This document shows, piece by piece, positions 1,261-63,050 of a stretch of DNA of 64,000 bases. Under the pieces are notes generated by a model that worked only from the letters and a program-made list of their open reading frames with translations, did no database searches and was not told where the DNA came from. The DNA comes from an uncultured Bacilli bacterium (GTDB lineage: Bacteria > Bacillota_I > Bacilli_A > RF39 > UBA660), in NCBI GenBank assembly GCA_934096805.1, contig CAKOMW010000002.1, positions 139,736 to 203,735 of the forward strand, given 5' to 3'. The first letter of the stretch is position 1, and every line of letters begins with the position of its first letter. Position numbers and translations under genes: made by a program.

Positions 1261-1379
1261 GAAGTTTTTTTGTATTAAAATTAAACTATAAAAACTAAAG
1301 AGGAGGACAGGTGTAAACAAAAAATCTACGCATAACATATAAACACCTAATAAGTAATATGGTAAACAAATATTCGTCT

Positions 1380-1389
1380 GGGGGGGGGG
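1380..1389 (+). repeat. poly-G homopolymer (10 G) separating an upstream ATG (1359) from the copy-A reading frame
   Basis: Seen directly. ATG at 1359 is in frame 0 and stops at 1401. The long ORF is open from 1366 in the +1 frame and encodes a signal-anchor TM segment (KTIKIISIIILLILIVISISFALG) before the annotated ATG at 1582. 11 G or 8 G would fuse ATG-1359 to the long frame. Confidence 0.6.
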
Positions 1390-1581
1390 CAAAATACTAC
1401 TAACCCTATAAATAAGAAAGGGAAAACAATAAAAATAATATCAATAATAATACTTTTAATACTAATAGTAATTAGTATATCTTTTGCATTAGGAAATATT
1501 GATATAAATATACTAGGAAGAAGAAATATAAAAATATCTAAATGCGAACTAGATATAAACTTTAAAGAAAGTGAAGAACTA

Positions 1582-2802
1582 ATGCTAGTAAGTAAATATC
1601 CCATATCAAAAGAAGAAGCATTAAAGTATAATGCAAAAGAAATAAATATAACAAACAATTCTACATGTGATACAGCTTATTATAAAGTAACAATAAAAGA
1701 CTTAGTAAATTCATCTATAAATAAAGATAAGATTAACTATCAAGTAATAGATAAAAGTACAAATACAGAAACAATAGATAAAAACCCAGATAACTTTAAT
1801 ATAAGTGATTCACTTACTAAAGGAAATACCAAAACATATACAATAAGACTATGGATAGATGAAAGTGCAACCAATACAGATTTATTTATAAATGGAAATA
1901 CAACAAAACCAATAGAATATAAATATGCACTTAACATAGAATCAAGTGATGAAGAGATAAAAGGAGCAGGCATGACAGCAACAGAATTTGCCCAAGCAAA
2001 TGTAGGACAAAATGGCCTAGAACTAGTAACTCATACAATAGATAATACCCTTCAAGTAGATAATAAATTTGCAACAGAATATAGATACAGAGGAGGAGAC
2101 TCAGTAGTAAAGAACTATGTAACATTTAATAATGAAATATGGAGAATAATAGGAATAATACCAACTGAAGATACCTCAGGTAATGTAGAAAATAGAATTA
2201 AGATAATAAGAGATACTTCAATAGGAAATATGAAATGGAATACAAATGATACTAATGATTGGACAAGTGCAACTTTAAATACATACTTAAATAATGATTA
2301 TTATAATACGTTAACAAGTGATGCCAAAAACATGATAGGAACAACAAAATACTATCTTGGAGGATATAACTCTGCAGGTATAACATCTGATGTAATGTGG
2401 CAATATGAAAGAAAGAATGATGCTAATCGAAGTGGATATTATTATGGTACAAATCCAATAATGCAAAATGATGCGAATAAAAAGATAGCAATAATGTATG
2501 CCAGTGATTATGGATATGGAGCATCAAAAGAATGTACAAGTAATGTAGGTGATTATGGGAACAATGCAAGTTGTAAAACAACAAATAATTGGTTAGACAA
2601 AAGTCAAGATACATGGTTGCTTCCGCAGTATTCAGACCTTTCCAACTATGCTTTCCGTGTGAACTCGGCTGGCGATGTCAGTAACAACAGCGTCGACGGC
2701 AGCTACGAACGTGCGGTCCGCCCAGTCCTAAGTCTGTCATCTAACGTAAAGATCTCAGGTGGAGAAGGGACTTTCAGTAAACCATACACGTTGTCACAAT
2801 AA
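1582..2802 (+). CDS. Surface protein paralog A with C-terminal C-type-lectin-like domain (currently N-terminally truncated / phase-OFF). The open frame extends back to 1366
   Basis: C-terminal 250 aa about 85-90 percent identical to 49720-51150 (TEYRYRGGDSVVKNYVTFNNE...AVRPVLSLSSNVKISGGEGT); GC-rich 3' end with hypervariable NNC-codon block at 2644-2712. Confidence 0.75.
   Translation: MLVSKYPISKEEALKYNAKEINITNNSTCDTAYYKVTIKDLVNSSINKDKINYQVIDKSTNTETIDKNPDNFNISDSLTKGNTKTYTIRLWIDESATNTDLFINGNTTKPIEYKYALNIESSDEEIKGAGMTATEFAQANVGQNGLELVTHTIDNTLQVDNKFATEYRYRGGDSVVKNYVTFNNEIWRIIGIIPTEDTSGNVENRIKIIRDTSIGNMKWNTNDTNDWTSATLNTYLNNDYYNTLTSDAKNMIGTTKYYLGGYNSAGITSDVMWQYERKNDANRSGYYYGTNPIMQNDANKKIAIMYASDYGYGASKECTSNVGDYGNNASCKTTNNWLDKSQDTWLLPQYSDLSNYAFRVNSAGDVSNNSVDGSYERAVRPVLSLSSNVKISGGEGTFSKPYTLSQ
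2644..2712 (+). other. hypervariable block (DGR VR-like) in copy A
   Basis: 69 nt differing at about half of positions from the equivalent block of copy B, while the following 40 nt are identical; 13 of 23 codons are NNC (aac, ggc, gtc, agc, gac, tac...). Confidence 0.55.
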
Positions 2803-2823
2803 ATTAAAAAATTCATTAACATA

Positions 2824-2852
2824 TTGCATAATTATTTAGTTTTATGTATAAT
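2824..2852 (+). promoter_or_regulatory. sigma-A type promoter for ileS leader (TTGCAT-17-TATAAT)
   Basis: ttgcat aattatttagttttatg tataat. Confidence 0.6.
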
Positions 2853-2858
2853 ATCTTA

Positions 2859-3117
2859 TGAGGTTATTCTTTTCGGGGGCCCAAGTAACCTCATATTATT
2901 GTGTCAAAAACAAATGATGAAGACGGAAATATATTGTTTTTTAAAGAGAGTTAGTGGTAGGTGTAAACTAATAAAAAAATATATTTCAGATCACTTCTGA
3001 TGTGTTTTATTAAAAGTAAAAACGGTTACGCGTTATAGTATTGAGTAAAAAAATAAGGTGGTACCACGAACATTTCGTCCTTTGGTAACATCTTTTTATT
3101 TTTAAGGAGGAGTTAAT
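2859..3117 (+). promoter_or_regulatory. T-box riboswitch leader of ileS
   Basis: about 260-nt leader; AGAGA box (ttaaagagagttagtgg), T-box core aaggtggtaccacg at 3055-3068, terminator hairpin plus ctttttattttt before the RBS aaggagg. Confidence 0.7.
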
Positions 3118-8086: not shown

Positions 8087-9837
8087 TAAAAATAATGGAT
8101 GAAGACTTATCCAACAAAATAGCAGCAGGTGAAGTAGTAGAATCCTTAATGAGCGTAGTAAAAGAATTAGTGGAAAACTCAATTGACGCTAACTCTTCAA
8201 TAATAAAAATTTATCTTTCAGATTCTGGTATTAAATCCATAAAAGTAGTAGACAATGGAAAAGGAATGTCAAGAGAAGATGCCAATTGTTGTATTCTTAG
8301 ACATGCCACTAGTAAGCTATATACTAAAGATGACCTATTTAACATCAATACTTTAGGCTTTCGAGGAGAAGCCATGCCTTCAATTGCTAGTGTTTCCCAA
8401 ATGATTATCAAAACCAGTGATGGTGAAGAATCTACAAAAATAATAGTAAAGGGAGGTACAGTTGAAGAAATAAAATCAACAGATTTAAGAGGAGGCACCA
8501 CCATTGAAGTAAGTGACATTTTCTATAATACTCCTGCTAGGTTTAAATATCTAAAAAGCTTACATACAGAACTCGCAAACATAACAAACTATGTAAACAA
8601 AATGGCTTTAGCTAACCCTGACATATCATTTTATCTTGAAAACGATGGAAAAGTTTTATTAAACACAGATGGTTCCTCTAATCTCTTAAAAGTAATTAAT
8701 AGCATTTATGGACTTGAAGTAACAAAAAAAATGTTAAAAGTAGAAAGATCAAGCAGTGACTATAAAGTAACTGGATATATTTCTTATCCCGAAATTAATC
8801 GTTCTAGTAGAAACAATATAACCCTTTTAGTAAATGGAAGATATGTTAGAAACAATGATATTACAAGAACAATACTTGATGGCTATCACACATATTTACC
8901 AATCAACCGTTATCCTATTGTTGTATTAAATATTGAAGCCGATCCTTATATAATTGATGTAAATATTCATCCCACTAAAATGGATATCAAATTCTCTAAA
9001 ATAGAAGAATTAAAAGAAATGATTTTTTCCTTAGTTAGTGAGTCATTAAATAAACTCACCTTAATACCAGAGGCAAAATACGAACCACGTCCTATATCTA
9101 ATATTGAAACAGTAACTACTTTAAATGACAAAATAGACTTTAAAGATGAAAAAACTTGCGATACACTAGAAGAAAAAGTGAAATTTGAAGAACTAAACTT
9201 TGATTTTGATAATGACTATACTATTAGTGATAGAAAAGAAGAATATCATAAAGAAAAAATGAAAAAAATAAAACCACTTGCTCTTGCTCATGGAACATAT
9301 ATAATTGGTGAAAACGAAGATGGAATATTTTTAATAGACCAACATGCTGCCAATGAAAGAATCAATTATGAATACTATCTAAAAGAACTAGGAAAAGAAA
9401 ACACTCTTACAAAAGACCTTTTAATACCAATAAAAATTGAACTTTCTAATAACGAATATCTTAGTTTAAAAGAAAATATAAATGTTTTAGATAAAATGGG
9501 CTTTGTTTATGAAGAATTTGGTTTTAATACACTTATTATAAGAAGCCATCCTGCTTGGATTAAACAAGGCTATACAAACGAAACAATTAGAAAAATAATT
9601 GAAGTTATAATTGAAAAAAAAGAATTTAGTAAAGAAAAATTTTTAGAACGTGTTGCCATAACTTTAGCATGCAAAATGTCCATTAAAGCCAATGAACACA
9701 TCTCAGACGAAGAAATGAACTCTTTACTAAATAGATTAAGAGATACAAACAATCCTTTCACTTGTCCACATGGAAGACCCACAATTATTACATTTTCTAT
9801 TTATGAATTAGAAAAAATGTTTAAGAGGGTTGTATAA
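8077..9837 (+). CDS. mutL: DNA mismatch repair protein MutL
   Basis: IAAGEVVESLMSVVKELVENSIDA GHKL ATPase motifs; conserved C-terminal dimerisation/endonuclease region (LIDQHAANERINYE, ACKMSIKAN, FTCPHGRP). Confidence 0.9.
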   Translation: MQIIKIMDEDLSNKIAAGEVVESLMSVVKELVENSIDANSSIIKIYLSDSGIKSIKVVDNGKGMSREDANCCILRHATSKLYTKDDLFNINTLGFRGEAMPSIASVSQMIIKTSDGEESTKIIVKGGTVEEIKSTDLRGGTTIEVSDIFYNTPARFKYLKSLHTELANITNYVNKMALANPDISFYLENDGKVLLNTDGSSNLLKVINSIYGLEVTKKMLKVERSSSDYKVTGYISYPEINRSSRNNITLLVNGRYVRNNDITRTILDGYHTYLPINRYPIVVLNIEADPYIIDVNIHPTKMDIKFSKIEELKEMIFSLVSESLNKLTLIPEAKYEPRPISNIETVTTLNDKIDFKDEKTCDTLEEKVKFEELNFDFDNDYTISDRKEEYHKEKMKKIKPLALAHGTYIIGENEDGIFLIDQHAANERINYEYYLKELGKENTLTKDLLIPIKIELSNNEYLSLKENINVLDKMGFVYEEFGFNTLIIRSHPAWIKQGYTNETIRKIIEVIIEKKEFSKEKFLERVAITLACKMSIKANEHISDEEMNSLLNRLRDTNNPFTCPHGRPTIITFSIYELEKMFKRVV

Positions 9838-9884
9838 TACAACATATTTGTGTATAATATTTAATTACCTAGGAGGTGTGGTTT

Positions 9885-10145
9885 ATGAATGTTGATGTAA
9901 CAGTAAATAGTGTAAGAGAGATAGAATCAGGTACAAACATGCATGGGGTAGTTTCTTCAAACGAAGGCTTAAGTTATAATGAAGCTAGCAACGCTGTATA
10001 TTATTCCTTAGATCAAGAAGGATACTTTGTTAACTCTATTTTTTTAACATATAAAGATGAAAACGCTTACCTTTTTGAAGCAATCGTTAAAAATAAACAT
10101 TATGATGATATGATGAATGAGATATTTGTAAAAACAAGACGTTAA
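9885..10145 (+). CDS. small hypothetical protein
   Basis: aggagg RBS 9 nt upstream; 86 aa. Confidence 0.4.
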   Translation: MNVDVTVNSVREIESGTNMHGVVSSNEGLSYNEASNAVYYSLDQEGYFVNSIFLTYKDENAYLFEAIVKNKHYDDMMNEIFVKTRR

Positions 10146-10154
10146 GGTGATTAA

Positions 10155-10883
10155 ATGATTTATGCAATTGTTGGTCCTACTGGAGTAGGCAAAACTAATC
10201 TTAGTATAAAACTTGCTAAAAAATTAAACGCAGAAATTATTAATTGTGATAGTATGCAAATATACAAAGAATTTAAAATCGGAGTAGGCAAAATAACCGA
10301 TAGGGAAAAAGAAAATATTACTCATCACTTATTTGATGTTGTAAGTATATCTGAAGACTACTCCGTTTTCGATTACCAAAAAGAAGCTAGAAAAATACTA
10401 GATAGTTTATTACAACAAAATAAAAATATTATAATTGTCGGAGGAACCGGTCTATATTTGAAAGCACTTTTATATGACTACACATTTGATAAGAATAAAA
10501 ATGGTAATAAAAAACTATATGATTTTAAATTAATTGGTCTTACTAAAGATAGAGATATTTTATATCAAGACATTAATAAAAGAGTAGATAGTATGATTAA
10601 TGATAATTTAGAAAACGAGGTAAGAGAATTTTACAACAAAGAAATAAACTCTAGAGCTATTACTACTGCAATTGGATATAAAGAATTTTATTCATATTTT
10701 AAAAATGAAATAACTTATGAAGAAACTATTTCTTTAATAAAAAAGAATTCAAGAAACTATGCTAAAAGACAATATACTTTTTTTAATAATCAATTTGCAG
10801 ATATAAAATGGTACAATACAATGAAATTATCTCCTGATGAAATAGTTTCTGATATAATGAGGGATAATTATGAAGATAAATGA
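10155..10883 (+). CDS. miaA: tRNA dimethylallyltransferase
   Basis: P-loop IVGPTGVGKT; MiaA-like length and motifs; no hfq downstream. Confidence 0.85.
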   Translation: MIYAIVGPTGVGKTNLSIKLAKKLNAEIINCDSMQIYKEFKIGVGKITDREKENITHHLFDVVSISEDYSVFDYQKEARKILDSLLQQNKNIIIVGGTGLYLKALLYDYTFDKNKNGNKKLYDFKLIGLTKDRDILYQDINKRVDSMINDNLENEVREFYNKEINSRAITTAIGYKEFYSYFKNEITYEETISLIKKNSRNYAKRQYTFFNNQFADIKWYNTMKLSPDEIVSDIMRDNYEDK

Positions 10884-11502
10884 TAAATTCACTAACAAAA
10901 TACATAGATCCTATAATATTAGGAACATTGAATTAGAAGAAGATTTTAAATTTTTAGAAAAAAACATTTTATTTGAAAATGATAATACGATAATATATTG
11001 TCCTTCCTATTCTTCGGATGTCTGTTTTAAAATTGATAAGTCTTTACTTTATAAAGCACGAGAAACCTATGAAATCGAAGAAATGATTTCTGCTCTTGCA
11101 GATAAACAAGAAAACGTTAAATTGACTGAATTTCCGTATGGTGTTGTAACTCAAGGGAGAAGAGTAATTGGACAAGAAGTAAGACTATACAAAGAATACG
11201 AACCATTATCTAAAAAAGTTTATTCTTTAACAAATGAACAATTTCTAATTGTATGTAAAAAAGTTTCAGAAATAATAAAAGAGTTAATTAATAATGATAT
11301 TTATTATTTAGATATTCATGAAGATAATTTCTTAGTCAATGATGATTTAGATGTAAAGGTAATTGACTTTTCATATAATTGCGTTATATTCTGTCATAAT
11401 AATCAAAATGAAAGTAGATTTTGTCACGAAAAATTAGAATCAATGTTTACTAAGCTAAGTAATTGTCAAAAAGAAGAAAATAACAGTCACAAAACCAGAT
11501 AA
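10870..11502 (+). CDS. small protein-kinase-like fold protein (atypical kinase/APH/Kdo-kinase-like)
   Basis: catalytic-loop-like YYLDIHEDNFLVNDDLDVKVIDFSY (HxDxxxxN ... IDF); start overlaps miaA stop (ATGA). Confidence 0.45.
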   Translation: MKINDKFTNKIHRSYNIRNIELEEDFKFLEKNILFENDNTIIYCPSYSSDVCFKIDKSLLYKARETYEIEEMISALADKQENVKLTEFPYGVVTQGRRVIGQEVRLYKEYEPLSKKVYSLTNEQFLIVCKKVSEIIKELINNDIYYLDIHEDNFLVNDDLDVKVIDFSYNCVIFCHNNQNESRFCHEKLESMFTKLSNCQKEENNSHKTR

Positions 11503-11536
11503 ACTGTTGTTTTTTCAACAATTTTTTTAAAAAAAA

Positions 11537-11565
11537 TTGACAAAAGCAAAAAAATGTGCTATAAT
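11537..11565 (+). promoter_or_regulatory. consensus sigma-A promoter TTGACA-17-TATAAT
   Basis: ttgaca aaagcaaaaaaatgtgc tataat. Confidence 0.7.
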
Positions 11566-11612
11566 TTAGACACTTAATTAGATACCATAGTAGAGAAATA
11601 GGGGGTTATATT

Positions 11613-12044
11613 ATGGAAAATAGGAGATTAAATTATCATTTTGAATATGTTAATGAAAATGAATTTAGAAAAAAAGAAAGGTCAGTAAGAAAATACAACA
11701 TGTTGGCATATAAGAAATTACAATTTGAATATTATCCAGCCATTAGAGAAGGTAATTTTCTTGGTAAACTAGTTGAAAAATCTACTAAAGATGATTCAGA
11801 AAAATATGAATTAAAATTACCTACAGATTCATTATTTTCTAAAGTACATGGTGACGTTGTTTTACATTACACAGTTTATTTAGATAAAAATGTTGTGTTA
11901 CTTGAAACTATCACACCAGAAGATATTTTAGATGAGGGTCATCGTAGTGAGCTAGGAACATACAAAGGAGTTATGATTTCTAGTACTAATGCTCAAAAAG
12001 ATATGTTTAAAGTTAATTTATTAAATGCATTGAACCATAAATAA
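11613..12044 (+). CDS. hypothetical protein (143 aa)
   Basis: RBS agggggt; no secure family assignment. Confidence 0.5.
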   Translation: MENRRLNYHFEYVNENEFRKKERSVRKYNMLAYKKLQFEYYPAIREGNFLGKLVEKSTKDDSEKYELKLPTDSLFSKVHGDVVLHYTVYLDKNVVLLETITPEDILDEGHRSELGTYKGVMISSTNAQKDMFKVNLLNALNHK

Positions 12045-12146
12045 TTGGTTCTTTTTCATTAAAATACAAAAAAACCTAAAAAAGATAAAAAAATAAAAAA
12101 AGAATATTGATTTATTATAAATTATATGATATTATTAAAAAGCAGT

Positions 12147-12223
12147 GGACCCTTAGCTCAGTTGGTTAGAGCATCCGGCTCATAACCGGGAGGTCGTAGG
12201 TTCGAGCCCTACAGGGTCCACCA
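12147..12223 (+). tRNA. tRNA-Met (anticodon CAT; elongator or Ile-lysidine type)
   Basis: cloverleaf ggaccct...agggtcc acceptor, anticodon loop ctCATaa, TpsiC gttcgag, encoded CCA. Confidence 0.85.
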
Positions 12224-12228
12224 TACAT

Positions 12229-12313
12229 GCGGGTATGGCGGAATTGGCAGACGCACTAGACTTAGGATCTAGCGGAGTGATCCATGGGGGTTCAAGTCCC
12301 TTTACCCGCACCA
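12229..12313 (+). tRNA. tRNA-Leu (anticodon TAG) with long variable arm
   Basis: acceptor gcgggta/tacccgc, anticodon loop ctTAGga, long variable arm, GGTTCAAGTCC T-arm, CCA. Confidence 0.85.
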
Positions 12314-12349
12314 ACTTGTTTAATAATTCGTTTATTCGAATTCTATAGA

Positions 12350-12379
12350 AGTCAATCGAAAGATTGCTTTTTTATTTTT
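12350..12379 (+). terminator. terminator after tRNA pair
   Basis: caatcgaaagattg hairpin followed by cttttttattttt. Confidence 0.5.
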
Positions 12380-12412
12380 ATAAGATTACGCAAACAATTG
12401 TATAAAAATTGT

Positions 12413-12441
12413 TTGACAACAGATATAAAACATGTTATAAT
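12413..12441 (+). promoter_or_regulatory. consensus sigma-A promoter TTGACA-17-TATAAT
   Basis: ttgaca acagatataaaacatgt tataat. Confidence 0.7.
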
Positions 12442-12487
12442 ACTGTAATCTTTTAAGATACTAATATTAATTTATGGAGGACCTAAT

Positions 12488-12910
12488 ATGAAAAAAGAAT
12501 GCTTAACCACTTATCAATTTTTACTTCTTTACAGTGCACTATCTATCTATAAAGAAAATTCATTTTTTATATACAATAAAGAATTAGAACAAAAACTAGC
12601 TAAATTCCATGATGTTGAAGCATTTAACATTTTATTTTCGAATATTGAATTAAAACAAACTAATAAAATATTTTCTTTAAACTTAGACGAAGCCTTTGAT
12701 TTAGCATACAAAAAAGGATTGTTAATAGAAGTGCCATTAAGTGACAATAATATATCAGTTATTAATTTTTCAAATGAATTTGCAAATGATATTATAAATA
12801 GTTTTGATAATTCAATAATATATATTGTAAACGATTTAATTGACATGGCAAACGAAGACAAAAAAATATCATTTACTAATAAAAAGAATATTAGAAAGCT
12901 GTACAAATAA
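12488..12910 (+). CDS. hypothetical protein (140 aa)
   Basis: RBS ggagga; no motif recognised. Confidence 0.5.
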   Translation: MKKECLTTYQFLLLYSALSIYKENSFFIYNKELEQKLAKFHDVEAFNILFSNIELKQTNKIFSLNLDEAFDLAYKKGLLIEVPLSDNNISVINFSNEFANDIINSFDNSIIYIVNDLIDMANEDKKISFTNKKNIRKLYK

Positions 12911-16318: not shown

Positions 16319-16359
16319 GGTTGCAAAAAGTTTTACAAATGATATAAGGATAAAAAGAT

Positions 16360-17512
16360 AAAAAAGTATAAGTTTTTTAAATTATATATAAAACAATATT
16401 TTTAATAAAAAAATAAGAATCAAATAAGAAAATTCTCTTAAGGGAAATATCTATTTTGGTTCTTTTTTATGTATTTAAAACTTAAAATTACTCATTTGCA
16501 TTGCATTTTTATATGTTATATATTGGTTTTGAAAGGAGGGAAAAGTATGAATCTTATTGGTGATAAGAAAGCTGTTTTAGATAAAGCTATGTCTAAAAAT
16601 GATGCTTATGAACTTGAAGATAGATATGATGGTTATAAAATACCAATTGTATCAGATGCAATGTTTAGAACAATGTTTTATAATGAATCAAGAAAGAAAT
16701 ATGGATGCTATTTAATTGCACTTCTACTAAAGAAAGACTTTAATGAAATCTATAATAATACTACTTTAATAAAAGCTAATATAGATGAAGAAAAAGAAAA
16801 TAAATCTAGAAAGACAGTAGACTATTTATGTAGAATAGATGATGTAGTAGTCAATGTAGAAATGAATAAAAATGCATCCAAGACAAGTTTAGCAAGAAAT
16901 CTAGGTTATATGTTTTCATTATATAATGGTGGAATGACTAAAGGAGATGATTATTTCTTTGAAACTTGTATTCAAATTAACATAAATAACTTTACATTTC
17001 AAGATAAAAACGAAGTATTAGATGAGTATATGATAGTTAATCTAAAAGACAGTGAAGAAGTGTATACAAATAAAATACATATTTATAATATTTACTTGCC
17101 AAATATAAGAAAAAAAGATTATAATAGTCTTGAGGAATATGAGAAGTTATTATTAGTATTTAATGAAAATGATAATAATATTCTTAATGAATTGAGTAAG
17201 GGTGATAAGATTATGAAAGAATATATTGATGATTCTAGAAAAGCAAGTGAACAAGATGAAGTAATAGGCATGTATGACAAAGAGTTGCACGAAGAAAGAT
17301 TAAGAAAATCAGAGTTAAGAGAAGCTAATGAGAATGGAATACAGCAAGGAATACAACAAGGTCGTAGCGAAGGCATCAAAGAAGGTATCGAGAAAACTGC
17401 CCTTAACATGATTCAAAAAAACATTGATTTAAACATCATCTCAGAATGCACAGGTCTTTCATTAGATGAACTAAACAAATTGAAATAGATTAATTTCTAT
17501 TTCTTTTTACTT
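16360..17512 (+). mobile_element. Rpn-family element copy 1 (leader + nuclease gene + 3' hairpin)
   Basis: about 190-bp leader nearly identical (as reverse complement) to the leaders at 39064-39270, 46990-47210, 47690-47868 and 62828-63050; 3' inverted repeat gaaatagattaatttctatttc + T-run at 17482-17510. Confidence 0.65.
16547..17488 (+). CDS. Rpn/YhgA-like recombination-promoting nuclease / putative transposase (PD-(D/E)XK, Transposase_31 type), subfamily I
   Basis: ATG with RBS aaaggaggg; N-terminal IPIVSDAMFRTMF and VDYLCRIDDVVVNVEMNKN (D...E.K PD-(D/E)XK-like) and a C-terminal G-rich repeat GIQQGIQQGRSEGIKEGIEK followed by TGLSLDELNKL, typical of Rpn proteins. The ORF-track start at 16469 includes leader sequence. 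Confidence 0.65.
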   Translation: MNLIGDKKAVLDKAMSKNDAYELEDRYDGYKIPIVSDAMFRTMFYNESRKKYGCYLIALLLKKDFNEIYNNTTLIKANIDEEKENKSRKTVDYLCRIDDVVVNVEMNKNASKTSLARNLGYMFSLYNGGMTKGDDYFFETCIQININNFTFQDKNEVLDEYMIVNLKDSEEVYTNKIHIYNIYLPNIRKKDYNSLEEYEKLLLVFNENDNNILNELSKGDKIMKEYIDDSRKASEQDEVIGMYDKELHEERLRKSELREANENGIQQGIQQGRSEGIKEGIEKTALNMIQKNIDLNIISECTGLSLDELNKLK

Positions 17513-46003: not shown

Positions 46004-47210
46004 ATATTCACTTTTTATTCATAAAAACAAAAGAAATAGAGATTAATCTATTTCAATTTTTGTAGTTCATCTAATGAAAGACCTGTATATTTGGAAACAA
46101 CTTCTAAATCAACATTATCTTGAATCATTTGTTTAGCTATGCTTACTCTTTCTTCTTTTCTGCCTTCGCTACGACCTTGTTGTATTCCTTGTTGTATTCC
46201 ATTCTCATTAGCTTCTCTTATCTCTGATTTTCTTAATCTTTCTTCGTGTAACTCCTTATCATACATGCCTATTACTTCATCTTCTTCACTTGCTTTTCTA
46301 GAATCATCAATATATTCTTTCATAATCTTATCACCCTTACTTAATTCATTAAGAATATTATTATCATTTTCATTAAATACTAATAATAACTTCTCATATT
46401 CCTCAAGTTTATTATAATCTTTTTTTCTTATATTTGGCAAGTAAATATTATAAATATGTATTTTATTTGTATACACTTCTTCACTGTCTTTTAGATTAAC
46501 TATCATATACTCATCTAATACTTCGTTTTTATCTTGAAATGTAAAGTTATTTATGTTAATTTGAATACAAGTTTCAAAGAAATAATCATCTCCTTTAGTC
46601 ATTCCACCATTATATAATGAAAACATATAACCTAGATTTCTTGCTAAACTTGTCTTGGATGCATTTTTATTCATTTCTACATTGACTACTACATCATCTA
46701 TTCTACATAAATAGTCTACTGTCTTTCTAGATTTATTTTCTTTTTCTTCATCTATATTAGCTTTTATTAAAGTAGTATTATTATAGATTTCATTAAAGTC
46801 TTTCTTTAGTAGAAGTGCAATTAAATAGCATCCATATTTCTTTCTTGATTCATTATAAAACATTGTTCTAAACATTGCATCTGATACAATTGGTATCTTA
46901 TAACCTTCATATCTTTTTTCAAGTTCATAGGCATCTTTTTCAGACATAGCTTTATCTAAAACAGCTTTCTTATTACCAATAAGATTCATACTTTTCCCTC
47001 CTTTCAAAACCACTATATACCATATAAAAACACAATGCAAATGAGTAATTTTAAGTTTTGAACATAGAAAAAAGAACCAAAATAGGTATTTCACTTAAGG
47101 GAATTTTTTATTTTGATTCTTATTTTTTATCAAAAATATTGTTTTATATATAATTTAAAAAACTTATACTTTTTTATTCTTTTTATAAGTATCAATCAAT
47201 ACTTAGAGTG
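46004..47210 (-). mobile_element. Rpn-family element copy 3 inserted between spoIIGA and sigE
   Basis: 3' hairpin gaaatagagattaatctatttc 46033-46054 + T-run; leader 46990-47210 including ttataagtatcaatcaatacttagagtg. Confidence 0.65.
46048..46989 (-). CDS. Rpn/YhgA-like PD-(D/E)XK nuclease / putative transposase, subfamily I
   Basis: about 95 percent identical to 16547-17488 and 61874-62827 except in the C-terminal G-rich repeat region (GIQQGIQQGRSEGRKEERVSIAKQ). Confidence 0.65.
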   Translation of the reverse strand: MNLIGNKKAVLDKAMSEKDAYELEKRYEGYKIPIVSDAMFRTMFYNESRKKYGCYLIALLLKKDFNEIYNNTTLIKANIDEEKENKSRKTVDYLCRIDDVVVNVEMNKNASKTSLARNLGYMFSLYNGGMTKGDDYFFETCIQININNFTFQDKNEVLDEYMIVNLKDSEEVYTNKIHIYNIYLPNIRKKDYNKLEEYEKLLLVFNENDNNILNELSKGDKIMKEYIDDSRKASEEDEVIGMYDKELHEERLRKSEIREANENGIQQGIQQGRSEGRKEERVSIAKQMIQDNVDLEVVSKYTGLSLDELQKLK

Positions 47211-49563: not shown

Positions 49564-49719
49564 AACTAAACTCCTTTTTATTTATATTTTTAATAGGCTT
49601 AAGAGGTCTGTGCGACAAGCGATATTAGAACATTATACAAATTACACTCTATTTATTTACTAATCTTATTTTCTACTGCTCGCCGCAAAATTTTACCTTG
49701 CAGGCTCGCTCATGTTTAC

Positions 49720-51150
49720 TCAACTGATACTAAGAGTATACGGACTACTTGAAGTTCCTTCTCCACCTGAAATCTTTACGTTAGATGACAGACTTAGGAC
49801 TGGGCGGACCGCAAACTCGTAGTTGTAGAAGTAGTTGGCGTTAAGGACACCGCCGGCATCAGCAACAAGGAAAGCGCCGTGGGAAATGTCTGAATACTGC
49901 GGAAGTAACCATGTATCTGCACTTTTATCTAACCAATTATTTGTTGTTTTACAACTTGCAGAGTTATTATATTTATATAAGTTCTGTGTACATTCTTTTG
50001 ATGCTCCATATCCATAATCACTTGCATACATTATAGCTATCTTTTTAGATGAATCACTTTGCATTATTGGATTTGTTCCATAATAATATCCTGTTCTATT
50101 GGCATCATTCTTTCTTTCATATTGCCACATTACATCTGATGTAATTTCTGGATAATTATTATATCCTCCAAGATAATATTTTGTTGTACCTATCATGTTT
50201 TTTGCATCAGTAGTCAAGGTATTATAATAATCATTATTTAAGTATGTATTTAATGTTGCAGTTGTCCAGTTATTTGTAATTTTTGTAGTCCAATGCATAT
50301 TCCCTATGGATTCATTTCTTACTATTTTAATTCTATTTTCTACATTGCCATCTGTATCTTCAGTAGGAATTACTCCGATGATTCTCCATACCTCATTGTT
50401 AAATGTTACATAGTTTTTTACTACTGAGTCTCCTCCCCTGTATCTGTACTCTGTAGCAAAGTTGTCATCTACTTGGAGAGTATCATCTATTCCGTGAGTA
50501 ATTTTTTCAATACCATTTGTGCCTACTGGTATATTTAATAATGGTACCATTTCTTTTGGAGCATCCTCATTATTCACATTAACTCTAAACTTATAACTAT
50601 AAGTAGCTTTGTTAAGTTTATCTGCATCAAAGTTATAGTCTAACCAAGCTCTTAGTCTATATGTTGTTTCATGTTCATTTACCGAGGTTGTAAATGTTTC
50701 TTCTTGTGATTTTATTACATAACTATTTAACTTATTTATAGTGGTAGGTCCAGTTACTAATGTTTCTGTATTGTTTTCTACTTTAGTAAGATATACTTTT
50801 ATATTACTATCTGTAAAACTAGTATAATTATTATTAATAGTTAATGGTTCTAAAACTATATTATAATTCATTTTTCTATCTTCATTAGTGGTCATCATAC
50901 TATATACTTTAAATTCAAAGTAATTAGAACTATTAATACCTTTCTTATCACTAGTAGGAAGAACATTAGTAAGACTTATTTCATTTGTTTCAGCATAAGA
51001 CATCTTTACTTGTCCAGTTGTTATTTTATTACCTAAAGTTGCTAAACCTACATTATATACTGCATAACCTGCGAATGATATAACACTAATCATAAAAAGC
51101 GACAGTGTTATCATCATTAATATTTTTTTACTTTTACTCATATTATCCAT
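49720..51150 (-). CDS. Surface protein paralog B with C-terminal C-type-lectin-like domain
   Basis: signal-anchor ILMMITLSLFMISVISFAGYAVYNVG; C-terminal half homologous to copy A; hypervariable block at 49813-49881. Confidence 0.75.
   Translation of the reverse strand: MDNMSKSKKILMMITLSLFMISVISFAGYAVYNVGLATLGNKITTGQVKMSYAETNEISLTNVLPTSDKKGINSSNYFEFKVYSMMTTNEDRKMNYNIVLEPLTINNNYTSFTDSNIKVYLTKVENNTETLVTGPTTINKLNSYVIKSQEETFTTSVNEHETTYRLRAWLDYNFDADKLNKATYSYKFRVNVNNEDAPKEMVPLLNIPVGTNGIEKITHGIDDTLQVDDNFATEYRYRGGDSVVKNYVTFNNEVWRIIGVIPTEDTDGNVENRIKIVRNESIGNMHWTTKITNNWTTATLNTYLNNDYYNTLTTDAKNMIGTTKYYLGGYNNYPEITSDVMWQYERKNDANRTGYYYGTNPIMQSDSSKKIAIMYASDYGYGASKECTQNLYKYNNSASCKTTNNWLDKSADTWLLPQYSDISHGAFLVADAGGVLNANYFYNYEFAVRPVLSLSSNVKISGGEGTSSSPYTLSIS
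49813..49881 (-). other. hypervariable block (DGR VR-like) in copy B
   Basis: 14 of 23 codons NNC (cac, ggc, ttc, gcc, gtc, aac, tac ...); flanked 3' by 40 nt identical to copy A (gcggtccgcccagtcctaagtctgtcatctaacgtaaagat). Confidence 0.55.
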
Positions 51151-61845: not shown

Positions 61846-63050
61846 AGTGTAAAATAAAAGAAATAGAATTAATCTATTTCAATTTTTGTAGTTCTTCAAA
61901 TGAAAGACCTGTGCATTCTGAGATGATGTTTAAATCAATGTTTTTTTGAAGTAGTTTAAGAGCAGCTTCTTTAGCTTTTTCTTTTTTTCCTTGCTGTATT
62001 CCTTCTTTGATGCCTTCACTACGACCTTGTTGTATTCCATTCTCATTAGCTTCTCTTAACTCTGATTTTCTTAATCTTTCTTCGTGTAACTCTTTATCAT
62101 ACATTCCTATTACTTCATCTTCTTCACTTGCTCTTCTAGAATCATCAATATATTCTTTCATAATCTTATCACCCTTGCTTAATTCATTAAGAATATTATT
62201 ATCATTTTCATTAAATACTAATAATAACTTCTCATATTCCTCAAGTTTATTATAATCTTTTTTTCTTATATTTGGCAAGTAAATATTATAAATATGTATT
62301 TTATTTGTATACACTTCTTCACTGTCTTTTAGATTAACTATCATATACTCATCTAATACTTCGTTTTTATCTTGAAATGTAAAGTTATTTATGTTAATTT
62401 GAATACAAGTTTCAAAGAAATAATCATCTCCTTTAGTCATTCCACCATTATATAATGAAAACATATAACCTAGATTTCTTGCTAAACTTGTCTTGGATGC
62501 ATTTTTATTCATTTCTACATTGACTACTACATCATCTATTCTACATAAATAGTCTACTGTCTTTCTAGATTTATTTTCTTTTTCTTCATCTATATTAGCT
62601 TTTATTAAAGTAGTATTATTATAGATTTCATTAAAGTCTTTCTTTAGTAGAAGTGCAATTAAATAGCATCCATATTTCTTTCTTGATTCATTATAAAACA
62701 TTGTTCTAAACATTGCATCTGATACAATTGGTATTTTATAACCATCATATCTATCTTCAAGTTCATAAGCATCATTTTTAGACATAGCTTTATCTAAAAC
62801 AGCTTTCTTATCACCAATAAGATTCATACTTTTCCCTCCTTTCAAAACCAATATATAACATATAAAAATGCAATGCAAATGAGTAATTTTAAGTTTTAAA
62901 TACATAAAAAAGAACCAAAATAGATATTTCCCTTAAGAGAATTTTCTTATTTGATTCTTATTTTTTTATTAAAAATATTGTTTTATATATAATTTAAGAA
63001 ACTTATACTTCTTAATTATTTTTATAAGTATTAATCAATACTTAGAGTGT
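61846..63050 (-). mobile_element. Rpn-family element copy 4 inserted between the hrcA promoter/CIRCE region and argS
   Basis: 3' hairpin gaaatagaattaatctatttc 61860-61880; leader 62828-63050 including ttataagtattaatcaatacttagagtg. Confidence 0.65.
61874..62827 (-). CDS. Rpn/YhgA-like PD-(D/E)XK nuclease / putative transposase, subfamily I
   Basis: ATG 62827 with RBS ggaggg; C-terminal repeat variant GIQQGRSEGIKEGIQQGKKEKAKE. Confidence 0.65.
   Translation of the reverse strand: MNLIGDKKAVLDKAMSKNDAYELEDRYDGYKIPIVSDAMFRTMFYNESRKKYGCYLIALLLKKDFNEIYNNTTLIKANIDEEKENKSRKTVDYLCRIDDVVVNVEMNKNASKTSLARNLGYMFSLYNGGMTKGDDYFFETCIQININNFTFQDKNEVLDEYMIVNLKDSEEVYTNKIHIYNIYLPNIRKKDYNKLEEYEKLLLVFNENDNNILNELSKGDKIMKEYIDDSRRASEEDEVIGMYDKELHEERLRKSELREANENGIQQGRSEGIKEGIQQGKKEKAKEAALKLLQKNIDLNIISECTGLSFEELQKLK

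Follow-up and report, generated by a model that had tools for sequence, protein, structure and literature searches.

Probable retroelement-diversified variable regions in two DUF6273 surface protein genes of an uncultured gut Bacilli bacterium, with a candidate poly-G switch

Two paralogous genes, referred to as copy A and copy B, were analyzed in a 64,000-nucleotide (nt) stretch of the genome of an uncultured Bacilli bacterium (GenBank assembly GCA_934096805.1, contig CAKOMW010000002.1, positions 139,736 to 203,735), which is referred to as the window. Comparative analysis indicated, with good confidence, that a stretch near the 3' end of each gene is a variable region of a diversity-generating retroelement (DGR), located at the C-terminal end of the DUF6273 domain of a membrane-anchored surface protein, and, with slightly higher confidence, that both regions were written by a DGR cassette of the type found in related genomes. 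That such a cassette is still present and active in this genome is much less secure, and we would place it a little below an even chance. The features of the two copies are as follows, with positions given in window coordinates.

1582–2802, plus strand: copy A as listed, an open reading frame (ORF) of 406 amino acids (aa) with an internal Met start and without a membrane anchor
1359–2802, plus strand: full-length frame of copy A, 480 aa with an N-terminal membrane anchor, open only if the poly-G tract near its 5' end is G9 or G12
49720–51150, minus strand: copy B, 476 aa, with the N-terminal membrane anchor intact and no poly-G leader
2224–2739, plus strand: DUF6273 match in copy A, residues 215–386 (PF19789, E = 2.5e-5, 24.6 bits)
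49786–50322, minus strand: DUF6273 match in copy B, residues 277–455 (PF19789, E = 1.9e-4, 21.8 bits)
2644–2712, plus strand: 69-nt block of copy A, the core of its variable region
49813–49881, minus strand: 69-nt block of copy B
2621–2728, plus strand: putative variable region of copy A, delimited by blastn to the template repeat of locus L030
49797–49907, minus strand: putative variable region of copy B, delimited in the same way
2713–2752, plus strand, and 49773–49812, minus strand: 40 nt shared by copies A and B, comprising an end that resembles an initiation of mutagenic homing (IMH) site and a conserved tail

An earlier note, made from the sequence of the window alone, had drawn attention to the 69-nt block as a place where the similarity of the two copies breaks down, and the alignment bore this out. 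Upstream of the block, 541 of 642 nt (84%) of the shared C-terminal domain were identical, compared to 58% within the block (29 mismatches) and all 40 of the 40 nt that follow it. NNC codons account for 13 of 23 codons in the block of copy A and 14 of 23 in that of copy B, and only 8–9% of codons elsewhere in the same genes (34/384 in A and 37/454 in B; binomial p = 1e-8 and 2e-10, respectively). The G+C-rich 3' gene ends that the note described were also found, with 52–54% G+C in the block and 55–56% in the whole variable region versus 26.6% in the window. The extent of the diversified stretch had to be revised, in that the block lies inside a template-homologous stretch of about 108 nt, longer than the 69 nt of the block.

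The 40 identical nucleotides open with the G+C-rich sequence GCGGTCCGCCCAG and encode AVRPVLSLSSNVK. In both A and B, GCGGTCCGCCCAG is followed directly by TCCT, giving a G+C-rich, IMH-like end to the variable region. This 40-nt tail is kept throughout the family, with a majority base of at least 90% in most columns and of 83% at third codon positions (33 genes).

Homologs of the domain of copy A numbered 969 in a single-sequence search and 2145 in a profile search. Among the 120 best-scoring of the 969, columns with more than 3 bits of entropy interleave with near-invariant columns in the block, and these high-entropy columns, which have an AAC-derived N/S/Y/D/G/H/R/I/F spectrum, coincide exactly with the block and a few codons upstream of it. 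The pattern of the block is far beyond chance. An accident of composition, such as foreign G+C-rich DNA inserted at gene ends, would explain the local rise in G+C only, not a structure repeated in about 1000 homologs with conserved flanks. This explanation was rejected on the NNC statistics (p = 1e-8 to 2e-10), on the exact 26-nt 3' flank, which occurs twice versus 0.00 expected, and on the entropy pattern of the homologs, and its probability is considered negligible.

DUF6273 was the sole Pfam match in both proteins. The match of copy A is above the curated gathering cutoff of PF19789 (23.5 bits) and that of copy B is slightly under it, and precomputed PF19789 annotation is present on many of the homologs. 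Two papers report that DUF6273 is targeted by DGRs, the variable region occupying the C-terminal end of the domain, and predict for it a fold like that of C-type lectins (PMC11792537, PMC10743442). AlphaFold2 models of full-length copy B and of the copy A domain with the most diverse alignment had mean predicted local distance difference test (pLDDT) scores of 47 and 51. Since both models are of low confidence, they do not confirm the lectin fold, and neither Foldseek nor a profile search of PDB sequences was informative on the fold of the A/B domain.

Complete DGR cassettes associated with members of the same gene family were identified in relatives, the cognate cassette being represented on five related contigs. 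The cassette at locus L030, on contig 7 of the metagenome-assembled genome (MAG) CAKOLK, has the following layout in locus coordinates.

8144–10828: target gene
11023–11131: template repeat
11310–11684: ORF resembling MutS domain I (MutS-I-like)
11674–12783: reverse transcriptase (RT) gene

The L030 template repeat is 109 nt long, lies 195 nt downstream of the target gene, and copies the variable region of that gene with adenines at the variable positions. The RT, of 369 aa, contains IGNMTSQ and YMDD motifs and matches Pfam RVT_1 and the PHROG reverse transcriptase category. The MutS-I-like ORF encodes 124 aa, and a separate bAvd ORF is apparently lacking at this locus. L052 has the layout of L030, its template being immediately preceded by a target gene, and in L056 and L057 the tail of an upstream gene is followed by the template, bAvd and then the RT; bAvd, present in most of the cassettes of the relatives, was recognized by Pfam PF22296 and by the PHROG category 'Avd protein of DGR'. 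A further template of the L030 type was found in L055, a metagenome contig from another organism. The small ORF between the template and bAvd or the RT encodes 119–126 aa and has a weak match to MutS domain I (E ~1e-3, near the Pfam cutoff); besides that of L030, it was located at the following positions.

4508–4867 of L052: MutS-I-like ORF
541–921 of L056: MutS-I-like ORF
363–737 of L059: MutS-I-like ORF

In L030, L052 and L055, template and variable region are homologous up to CGCCCAG, after which the variable region continues with TCCT and the template with CCCCTTAAAAAACC (CCCC). The CAG-T versus CAG-C boundary in these alignments is what would be expected of IMH and IMH*. Among the RT clusters of the family, one carries the name 'Mycoplasma sp. 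CAG:611'.

A conserved non-coding stretch was also observed between the template and the first accessory ORF of these cassettes, reading AAAGGACAAAACATATCTTTGAG...ATATATGTATGG...ATACGTCA...AAAGCATATAA (L030 11131–11310, and L052, L055, L056 and L057), and the template is immediately preceded by a conserved AAGGTATGTTTGA. These conserved stretches around the template are probably the spacer and the 5' end of the DGR RNA.

Differences between the templates and the variable regions were concentrated at template adenines. When the L030 template was compared with the variable regions of L006, L011, L015 and L030, which lie on four contigs of CAKOLK, 13–19 of 34–36 adenine sites were changed and only 1–3 of 68–69 non-adenine sites. 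These counts support the conclusion that in this relative one template would serve dispersed paralogs in trans. Across 13 gap-free variable regions from several genomes, entropy was 1.39 bits at template-adenine columns versus 0.41 bits elsewhere (Mann-Whitney p = 2.5e-13). The suggestion in the earlier note that the blocks are DGR variable repeats in target genes is thereby strengthened on four counts, namely the DUF6273 domain, the protein-level pattern across the family, the cognate cassettes in relatives and the adenine-site specificity.

The same bias was found, though only in part, in the genome of the window, which has at least three copies of the gene, the third, P0041 (locus L003), being located on the same 281-kb contig outside the window. 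The variable region of copy A is changed at 16 of 36 template-adenine sites versus 8 of 66 other sites, and that of copy B at 19 of 36 versus 11 of 66. When A, B and P0041 were compared with the foreign templates of L030 and L055, 43–54% of adenine sites differed and 12–21% of the others (Fisher p = 2e-4 to 8e-3). The three copies vary at 45 columns, and 32 of these have an adenine in one or more of the related templates.

Two further variable patches are present upstream of the variable region, at about 2545–2565 and 2605–2610 in copy A and at about 49958–49990 and about 49913–49920 in copy B. They read TTA-NNT-NNT-TAT-NNT-NNT and AGT-NNA-NNT, with an AAT-like residue spectrum across the family. 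The templates that align to the gene (L030, L052 and L055) stop short of these patches, the adenines beside them are invariant, and a search for a second template that would correspond to them gave no significant match in any cassette.

Exchange of whole 3' ends was also evident in the family, of which four related MAGs contain about 8 to 13 matching loci each, on different contigs. P0046 and P0022 have an identical variable region and 3' tail, and their best full-length matches in the window differ (B and A, respectively); the C-terminal ~135 residues of P0019 and P0050 are identical, although over its full length P0019 is best matched by B and P0050 by the third copy. Such combinations suggest that paralogs recombine their 3' ends as whole units. 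L051 is a close ortholog of copy A, identical over the first ~115 nt compared (window 2300 to about 2415) and with ~94% identity further upstream, over 1.7 kb aligned. Its 3' end, in the comparison of 10720–11330 with window 2300–2900, is different, A+T-richer, and without the NNC periodicity or the G+C-rich end, and looks like a swapped, decayed variable region. More distant members place the domain behind other modules, and it appears to be a portable binding module: L049 (3320–5389) combines it with a type-IV-pilin-like N-terminal methylation motif and a phage Gp10_C baseplate domain, dockerin domains (PF00404) are joined to it in P0316, P0317, P0324 and P0348, and Big_3 (PF07523) in P0319.

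Because cassette exchange is real in the family, and the NNT-type patches vary although the templates of L030, L052 and L055 do not reach them, it could be argued that no retroelement is involved and that ordinary diversifying selection acts on the block as a loop of the binding site, which gene conversion shuffles among paralogs. This is very unlikely, since variation follows the adenines of RT-adjacent templates in the relatives and the pattern from template to variable region in CAKOLK is one-sided, and the local jump in G+C and the codon periodicity would be left unaccounted for. The earlier note had set whole-cassette exchange against adenine-specific mutagenesis; such exchange does occur, but alongside the adenine-specific variation and not in its place.

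Several other observations weigh against writing of A and B by such a retroelement, or against its present activity. Other CAKOLK paralogs have 6–17 non-adenine mismatches to the L030 template, and are therefore served by another template or no longer served. Of the 45 columns at which A, B and P0041 vary, 13 have no adenine in any of the four related templates for which an in-register comparison was possible. Copies A and B differ at 12 of 67 non-adenine sites (18%), and because this equals the background divergence of 16%, A and B are not both fresh copies of one template of the family type. With respect to codons, the earlier note had listed A/B pairs that can be derived from AAC, but not all pairs are of this kind: TAT/GGC, AAC/GCT, TCG/GAT, GCT/GCC and GTG/GTT also differ at positions that are non-adenine in every related template compared in register.

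Searches for the cassette of this genome itself count on the same side. In the window, blastn with the variable region at word size 7 matched only A and B, two degenerate template-like patterns gave no matches, and tblastn with 184 DGR-type RTs and five accessory ORFs detected no RT, Avd or MutS-like ORF (best E = 0.028, which is noise), in agreement with the earlier note, which had found no RT or template in these 64 kb. No RT, Avd or template was found within 10 kb of the third copy, and no RT homolog on the 281-kb contig was present among the 120 best homologs. The contigs of eight RT homologs (P0122, P0123, P0124, P0127, P0129, P0183 and P0218, plus cluster lists) contained five templates (P0123, P0124, P0127, P0183 and P0218), none of which ends in GCGGTCCGCCCAG and two of which correspond to a different type of target.

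Pattern scans of genome, viral and metagenome collections likewise yielded no template that ends in GCGGTCCGCCCAG. The pattern TACGANNNTGCGGTCCGCCCAGTCC gave no matches in the genome collection, for which it is too strict, as it cannot match the template CAGCCCC and fixes adenines that vary. The template 3'-end pattern CGCCCAGCCCCTTAAAAAAC gave no matches in viral contigs and two in metagenome contigs, one being the family template from another organism (L055) and the other a chance match (L054).

Finally, the variable regions appear static in some comparisons. The exact 476-aa protein of copy B is recorded on 9 contigs, and its variable region is identical on the near-identical contigs L001 and L002, which differ from the window by no more than two single-nucleotide polymorphisms (SNPs) outside a repeat; the remaining differences fall inside a PDDEXK_2 copy, at ~46.4–46.8 kb, and probably result from assembly collapse. 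As L001 and L002 are essentially the same strain, this is a weak test of stability. Static variable regions were also seen in relatives, for example in L012 and L019, which are orthologs in two species-level MAGs and have nearly the same variable region.

Most of the conflicts between A and B at non-adenine sites are grouped in the 5' half, in the codons GTG AAC TCG GCT of A and GTT GCT GAT GCC of B. From the GTC at ~2680 through the identical 40 nt, each difference between A and B could be an adenine in a single template. Partial, 3'-anchored replacement is known for DGR homing, and the clean 3' half would fit such a replacement; it would fit gene conversion between A and B equally well. Before CCAG, A and B have GCGGTCCGC in place of the GCCGTGCGC of the third copy and of the L030 and L055 templates, which suggests that there are two variants of the template or else that the tails of A and B have a common ancestor. 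The predicted form of the template is CCGCAGaATTCAGACaaTTCCaAC...GTCaaTAaCaaCAaCaaCaaCaaCaaCaACGAaaaTGC[G/C]GT[C/G]CGCCCAGCCC, in which a lower-case a denotes a predicted adenine.

A mechanism for this genome can be proposed by homology with the standard DGR. A template repeat located elsewhere in the genome would be transcribed, and the DGR RT, together with bAvd and the small MutS-domain-I-like protein, would copy it into cDNA with misincorporation opposite adenines. The cDNA would then take the place of the variable region, with the G+C-rich end GCGGTCCGCCCAG serving as the anchor. In this way AAC and AAT codons of the template would become NNC and NNT codons, and the ligand-binding face would be recoded with no stop codons. 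The cassette would be expected outside the 64 kb, directly downstream of one paralog, and would act on the other paralogs as in the relatives. The results of the searches support the conclusion that the element is outside the window or has been lost from the genome.

Loss corresponds to an alternative in which a DGR once operated in the lineage, its cassette was lost or silenced, and A and B now change by substitution and 3' cassette exchange. This alternative is a substantial one, although we would not favor it. It is in line with the failure to find a cassette for this genome in the window, in the flanks of the third copy or in the collections scanned, with the equality of non-adenine and background divergence between A and B, and with the invariance of the copy B region among near-identical contigs and of the regions of L012 and L019 between species-level MAGs. 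The apparently decayed 3' end of L051 and the identical 3' cassettes on different backbones (P0046/P0022 and P0019/P0050) would also be expected from it. On the other hand, strong mutational pressure toward A+T would be expected to wear down a region no longer in use, which apparently happened in L051, and A and B keep 52–56% G+C. The RT cassettes of the family mostly lie on contigs of 1.4–3 kb that end at or near the template (L053, L056–L058 and L060–L063) and for this reason escape binning, so that absence from bins and long contigs is weak evidence, and contigs as similar as L001 and L002 tell little about stability. Continued activity of a cassette is favored by the clean NNC pattern, the intact IMH-like end, the lack of stops and frameshifts, and the high G+C maintained against A+T pressure.

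The 5' end of copy A contains a second element of possible variation.

1380–1389, plus strand: G10 homopolymer, 21 nt after the ATG at 1359, which places copy A out of frame

The start of copy A at 1582 assumed in the earlier note did not hold; the real start is the ATG at 1359, followed by AAC AAA TAT TCG TCT and the G10 tract, which shifts the frame. The tract is the only run of at least nine G in the 64 kb (expected 0.02). With G10, translation from this ATG reaches a stop after 14 codons, and with G9 or G12 an ORF of 480–481 aa including the membrane anchor is obtained, the N-terminus of which matches the full-length orthologs P0016 and P0007. Neither of these versions of copy A was found in the protein collection. 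The G10 tract probably gates expression of copy A, which would currently be off.

The leader with its tract occurs 25 times in the window and the fetched loci (L004, L008, L012, L015, L017, L022, L024, L026, L027, L032–L036, L039, L040 and L051), always at the 5' end of a family paralog. Its elements are ATG, preceded in most copies by a ribosome-binding site, then five to six codons that are conserved, G9–11 and CAAAATACT. Tract lengths were 9 (four tracts), 10 (17 tracts) and 11 (four tracts), and three of the tracts are in frame and 22 out of frame. Length differs between copies from different MAGs that have the same downstream leader context and are apparently orthologous (G9 in L039, G10 in L024), and L051, the locus related to copy A, also has G10. 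The leader is a candidate slipped-strand phase switch with the anatomy of homopolymer contingency loci.

In Campylobacter, Neisseria and Haemophilus, poly-G tracts make surface and glycosylation genes phase-variable (PMC3025981, PMC2192423). The tracts described here resemble such loci in that G9–G11 is located shortly after the start of a surface-protein gene, a single length class gives the correct frame, lengths vary between paralogs and between orthologs, and most copies are off. They differ in that the genes that bear them are also DGR targets, and in that they are known here from sequence, their switching being putative. No report that links DGR targets to homopolymer phase variation was found in the literature searched. 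We tentatively propose, and consider somewhat less probable than its opposite, that in these small-genome gut Bacilli the rewriting of the binding faces of several dispersed paralogs in trans by a single DGR cassette, poly-G switching by slipped-strand mispairing that leaves most paralogs off and a few on, and 3' cassette exchange jointly provide layered surface variation on the ~10–15 DUF6273 paralogs of each genome.

The closest precedents for the domain are the DUF6273 targets of Faecalibacterium prophages and the 'tentaclin' phage receptor-binding proteins, which have the same Pfam domain and the variable region in the same C-terminal place (PMC11792537, PMC10743442). In those systems the one or two targets, located next to the RT, are tail or decoration proteins of phages; the genes in the window, in contrast, are chromosomal, encode membrane-anchored proteins, and are located among housekeeping genes with no cassette nearby, and in the relatives, uncultured human-gut Bacilli, there are about 10–15 such paralogs per genome.

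Two other types of system invite comparison. The mtd DGR of Bordetella phage BPP-1 is the prototype, and the present family shares with it adenine-specific differences, AAC-rich templates, a G+C-rich end of the IMH/IMH* type, Avd and a 3' variable region. BPP-1 mtd is a single target in cis and is phage-borne; in the present family, unlike BPP-1, the gene runs ~75–85 nt past the variable region, and the relatives have a MutS-domain-I-like ORF and several dispersed targets. Chromosomal DGRs with multiple targets include those of Treponema denticola (TvpA and its paralogs), Legionella (LdtA) and, with many targets, reduced-genome members of the candidate phyla radiation (CPR) and DPANN. As in such systems, one RT and template, as seen in the relatives, serves several surface paralogs in trans, and the hosts have small genomes and probably depend on a host or on the surrounding community. 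The present family differs from them in its target domain family and in its host clade, uncultured gut Bacilli. No report of a poly-G leader on targets of chromosomal multi-target DGRs was found in the literature searched. Chromosomal multi-target DGRs and DUF6273 targets as such are already known, and what is potentially new is the combination of a conserved poly-G leader and cassette exchange in a DGR target family of 10–15 members in an uncultured gut lineage.

To our knowledge, DGRs are the only natural system of targeted protein hypermutation in prokaryotes, and chromosomal multi-target DGRs illustrate one way in which host-associated bacteria achieve surface variation from a small genome. 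The locus adds a large, unnamed DGR target family from uncultured gut Bacilli, and its variable regions could be recognized in a window without RT or template. Because the RT cassettes lie on tiny contigs that break at the template, DGR surveys based on MAGs will miss some of the cassettes and some of the targets. Should the poly-G leader prove to be a real switch, one set of genes would combine three mechanisms of variation, namely hypermutation, on/off switching and the exchange of cassettes.

Neighbors of A and B in the window have housekeeping functions, including the isoleucyl-tRNA synthetase (IleRS), sigma factors, SpoIIGA and the hrcA-grpE-dnaK-dnaJ operon, as in a low-G+C Firmicute-like organism, and the nearest public genomes are uncultured human-gut 'Bacilli' MAGs. 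Hairpins were found 3' of both genes and of RT-adjacent target genes in relatives.

2857–2895, plus strand: terminator-like hairpin 3' of the copy A stop codon (98-nt stretch, -16.7 kcal/mol, z = -2.0)
49678–49709, minus strand: hairpin directly 3' of the copy B stop codon (z = -1.8)
~3787–3819 of L052: hairpin of the copy B type (z = -5.2)
~65–95 of L056: hairpin of the copy B type (z = -3.7)
~40–70 of L057: hairpin of the copy B type (z = -2.9)

The copy-B-type hairpin consists of CCUGCARGG, a short loop and a CCUGCGG-like arm, with G·U pairs, and the bases of its outer stem vary between loci with pairing retained. The hairpin 3' of copy B could be a terminator or a DGR target-recognition element. 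In addition, a PDDEXK_2 (Rpn-type) transposase-like element is present in three copies in the window (46048–47094 on the minus strand, 16350–17507 and 61851–63050), with mutual identity of 92–94%.

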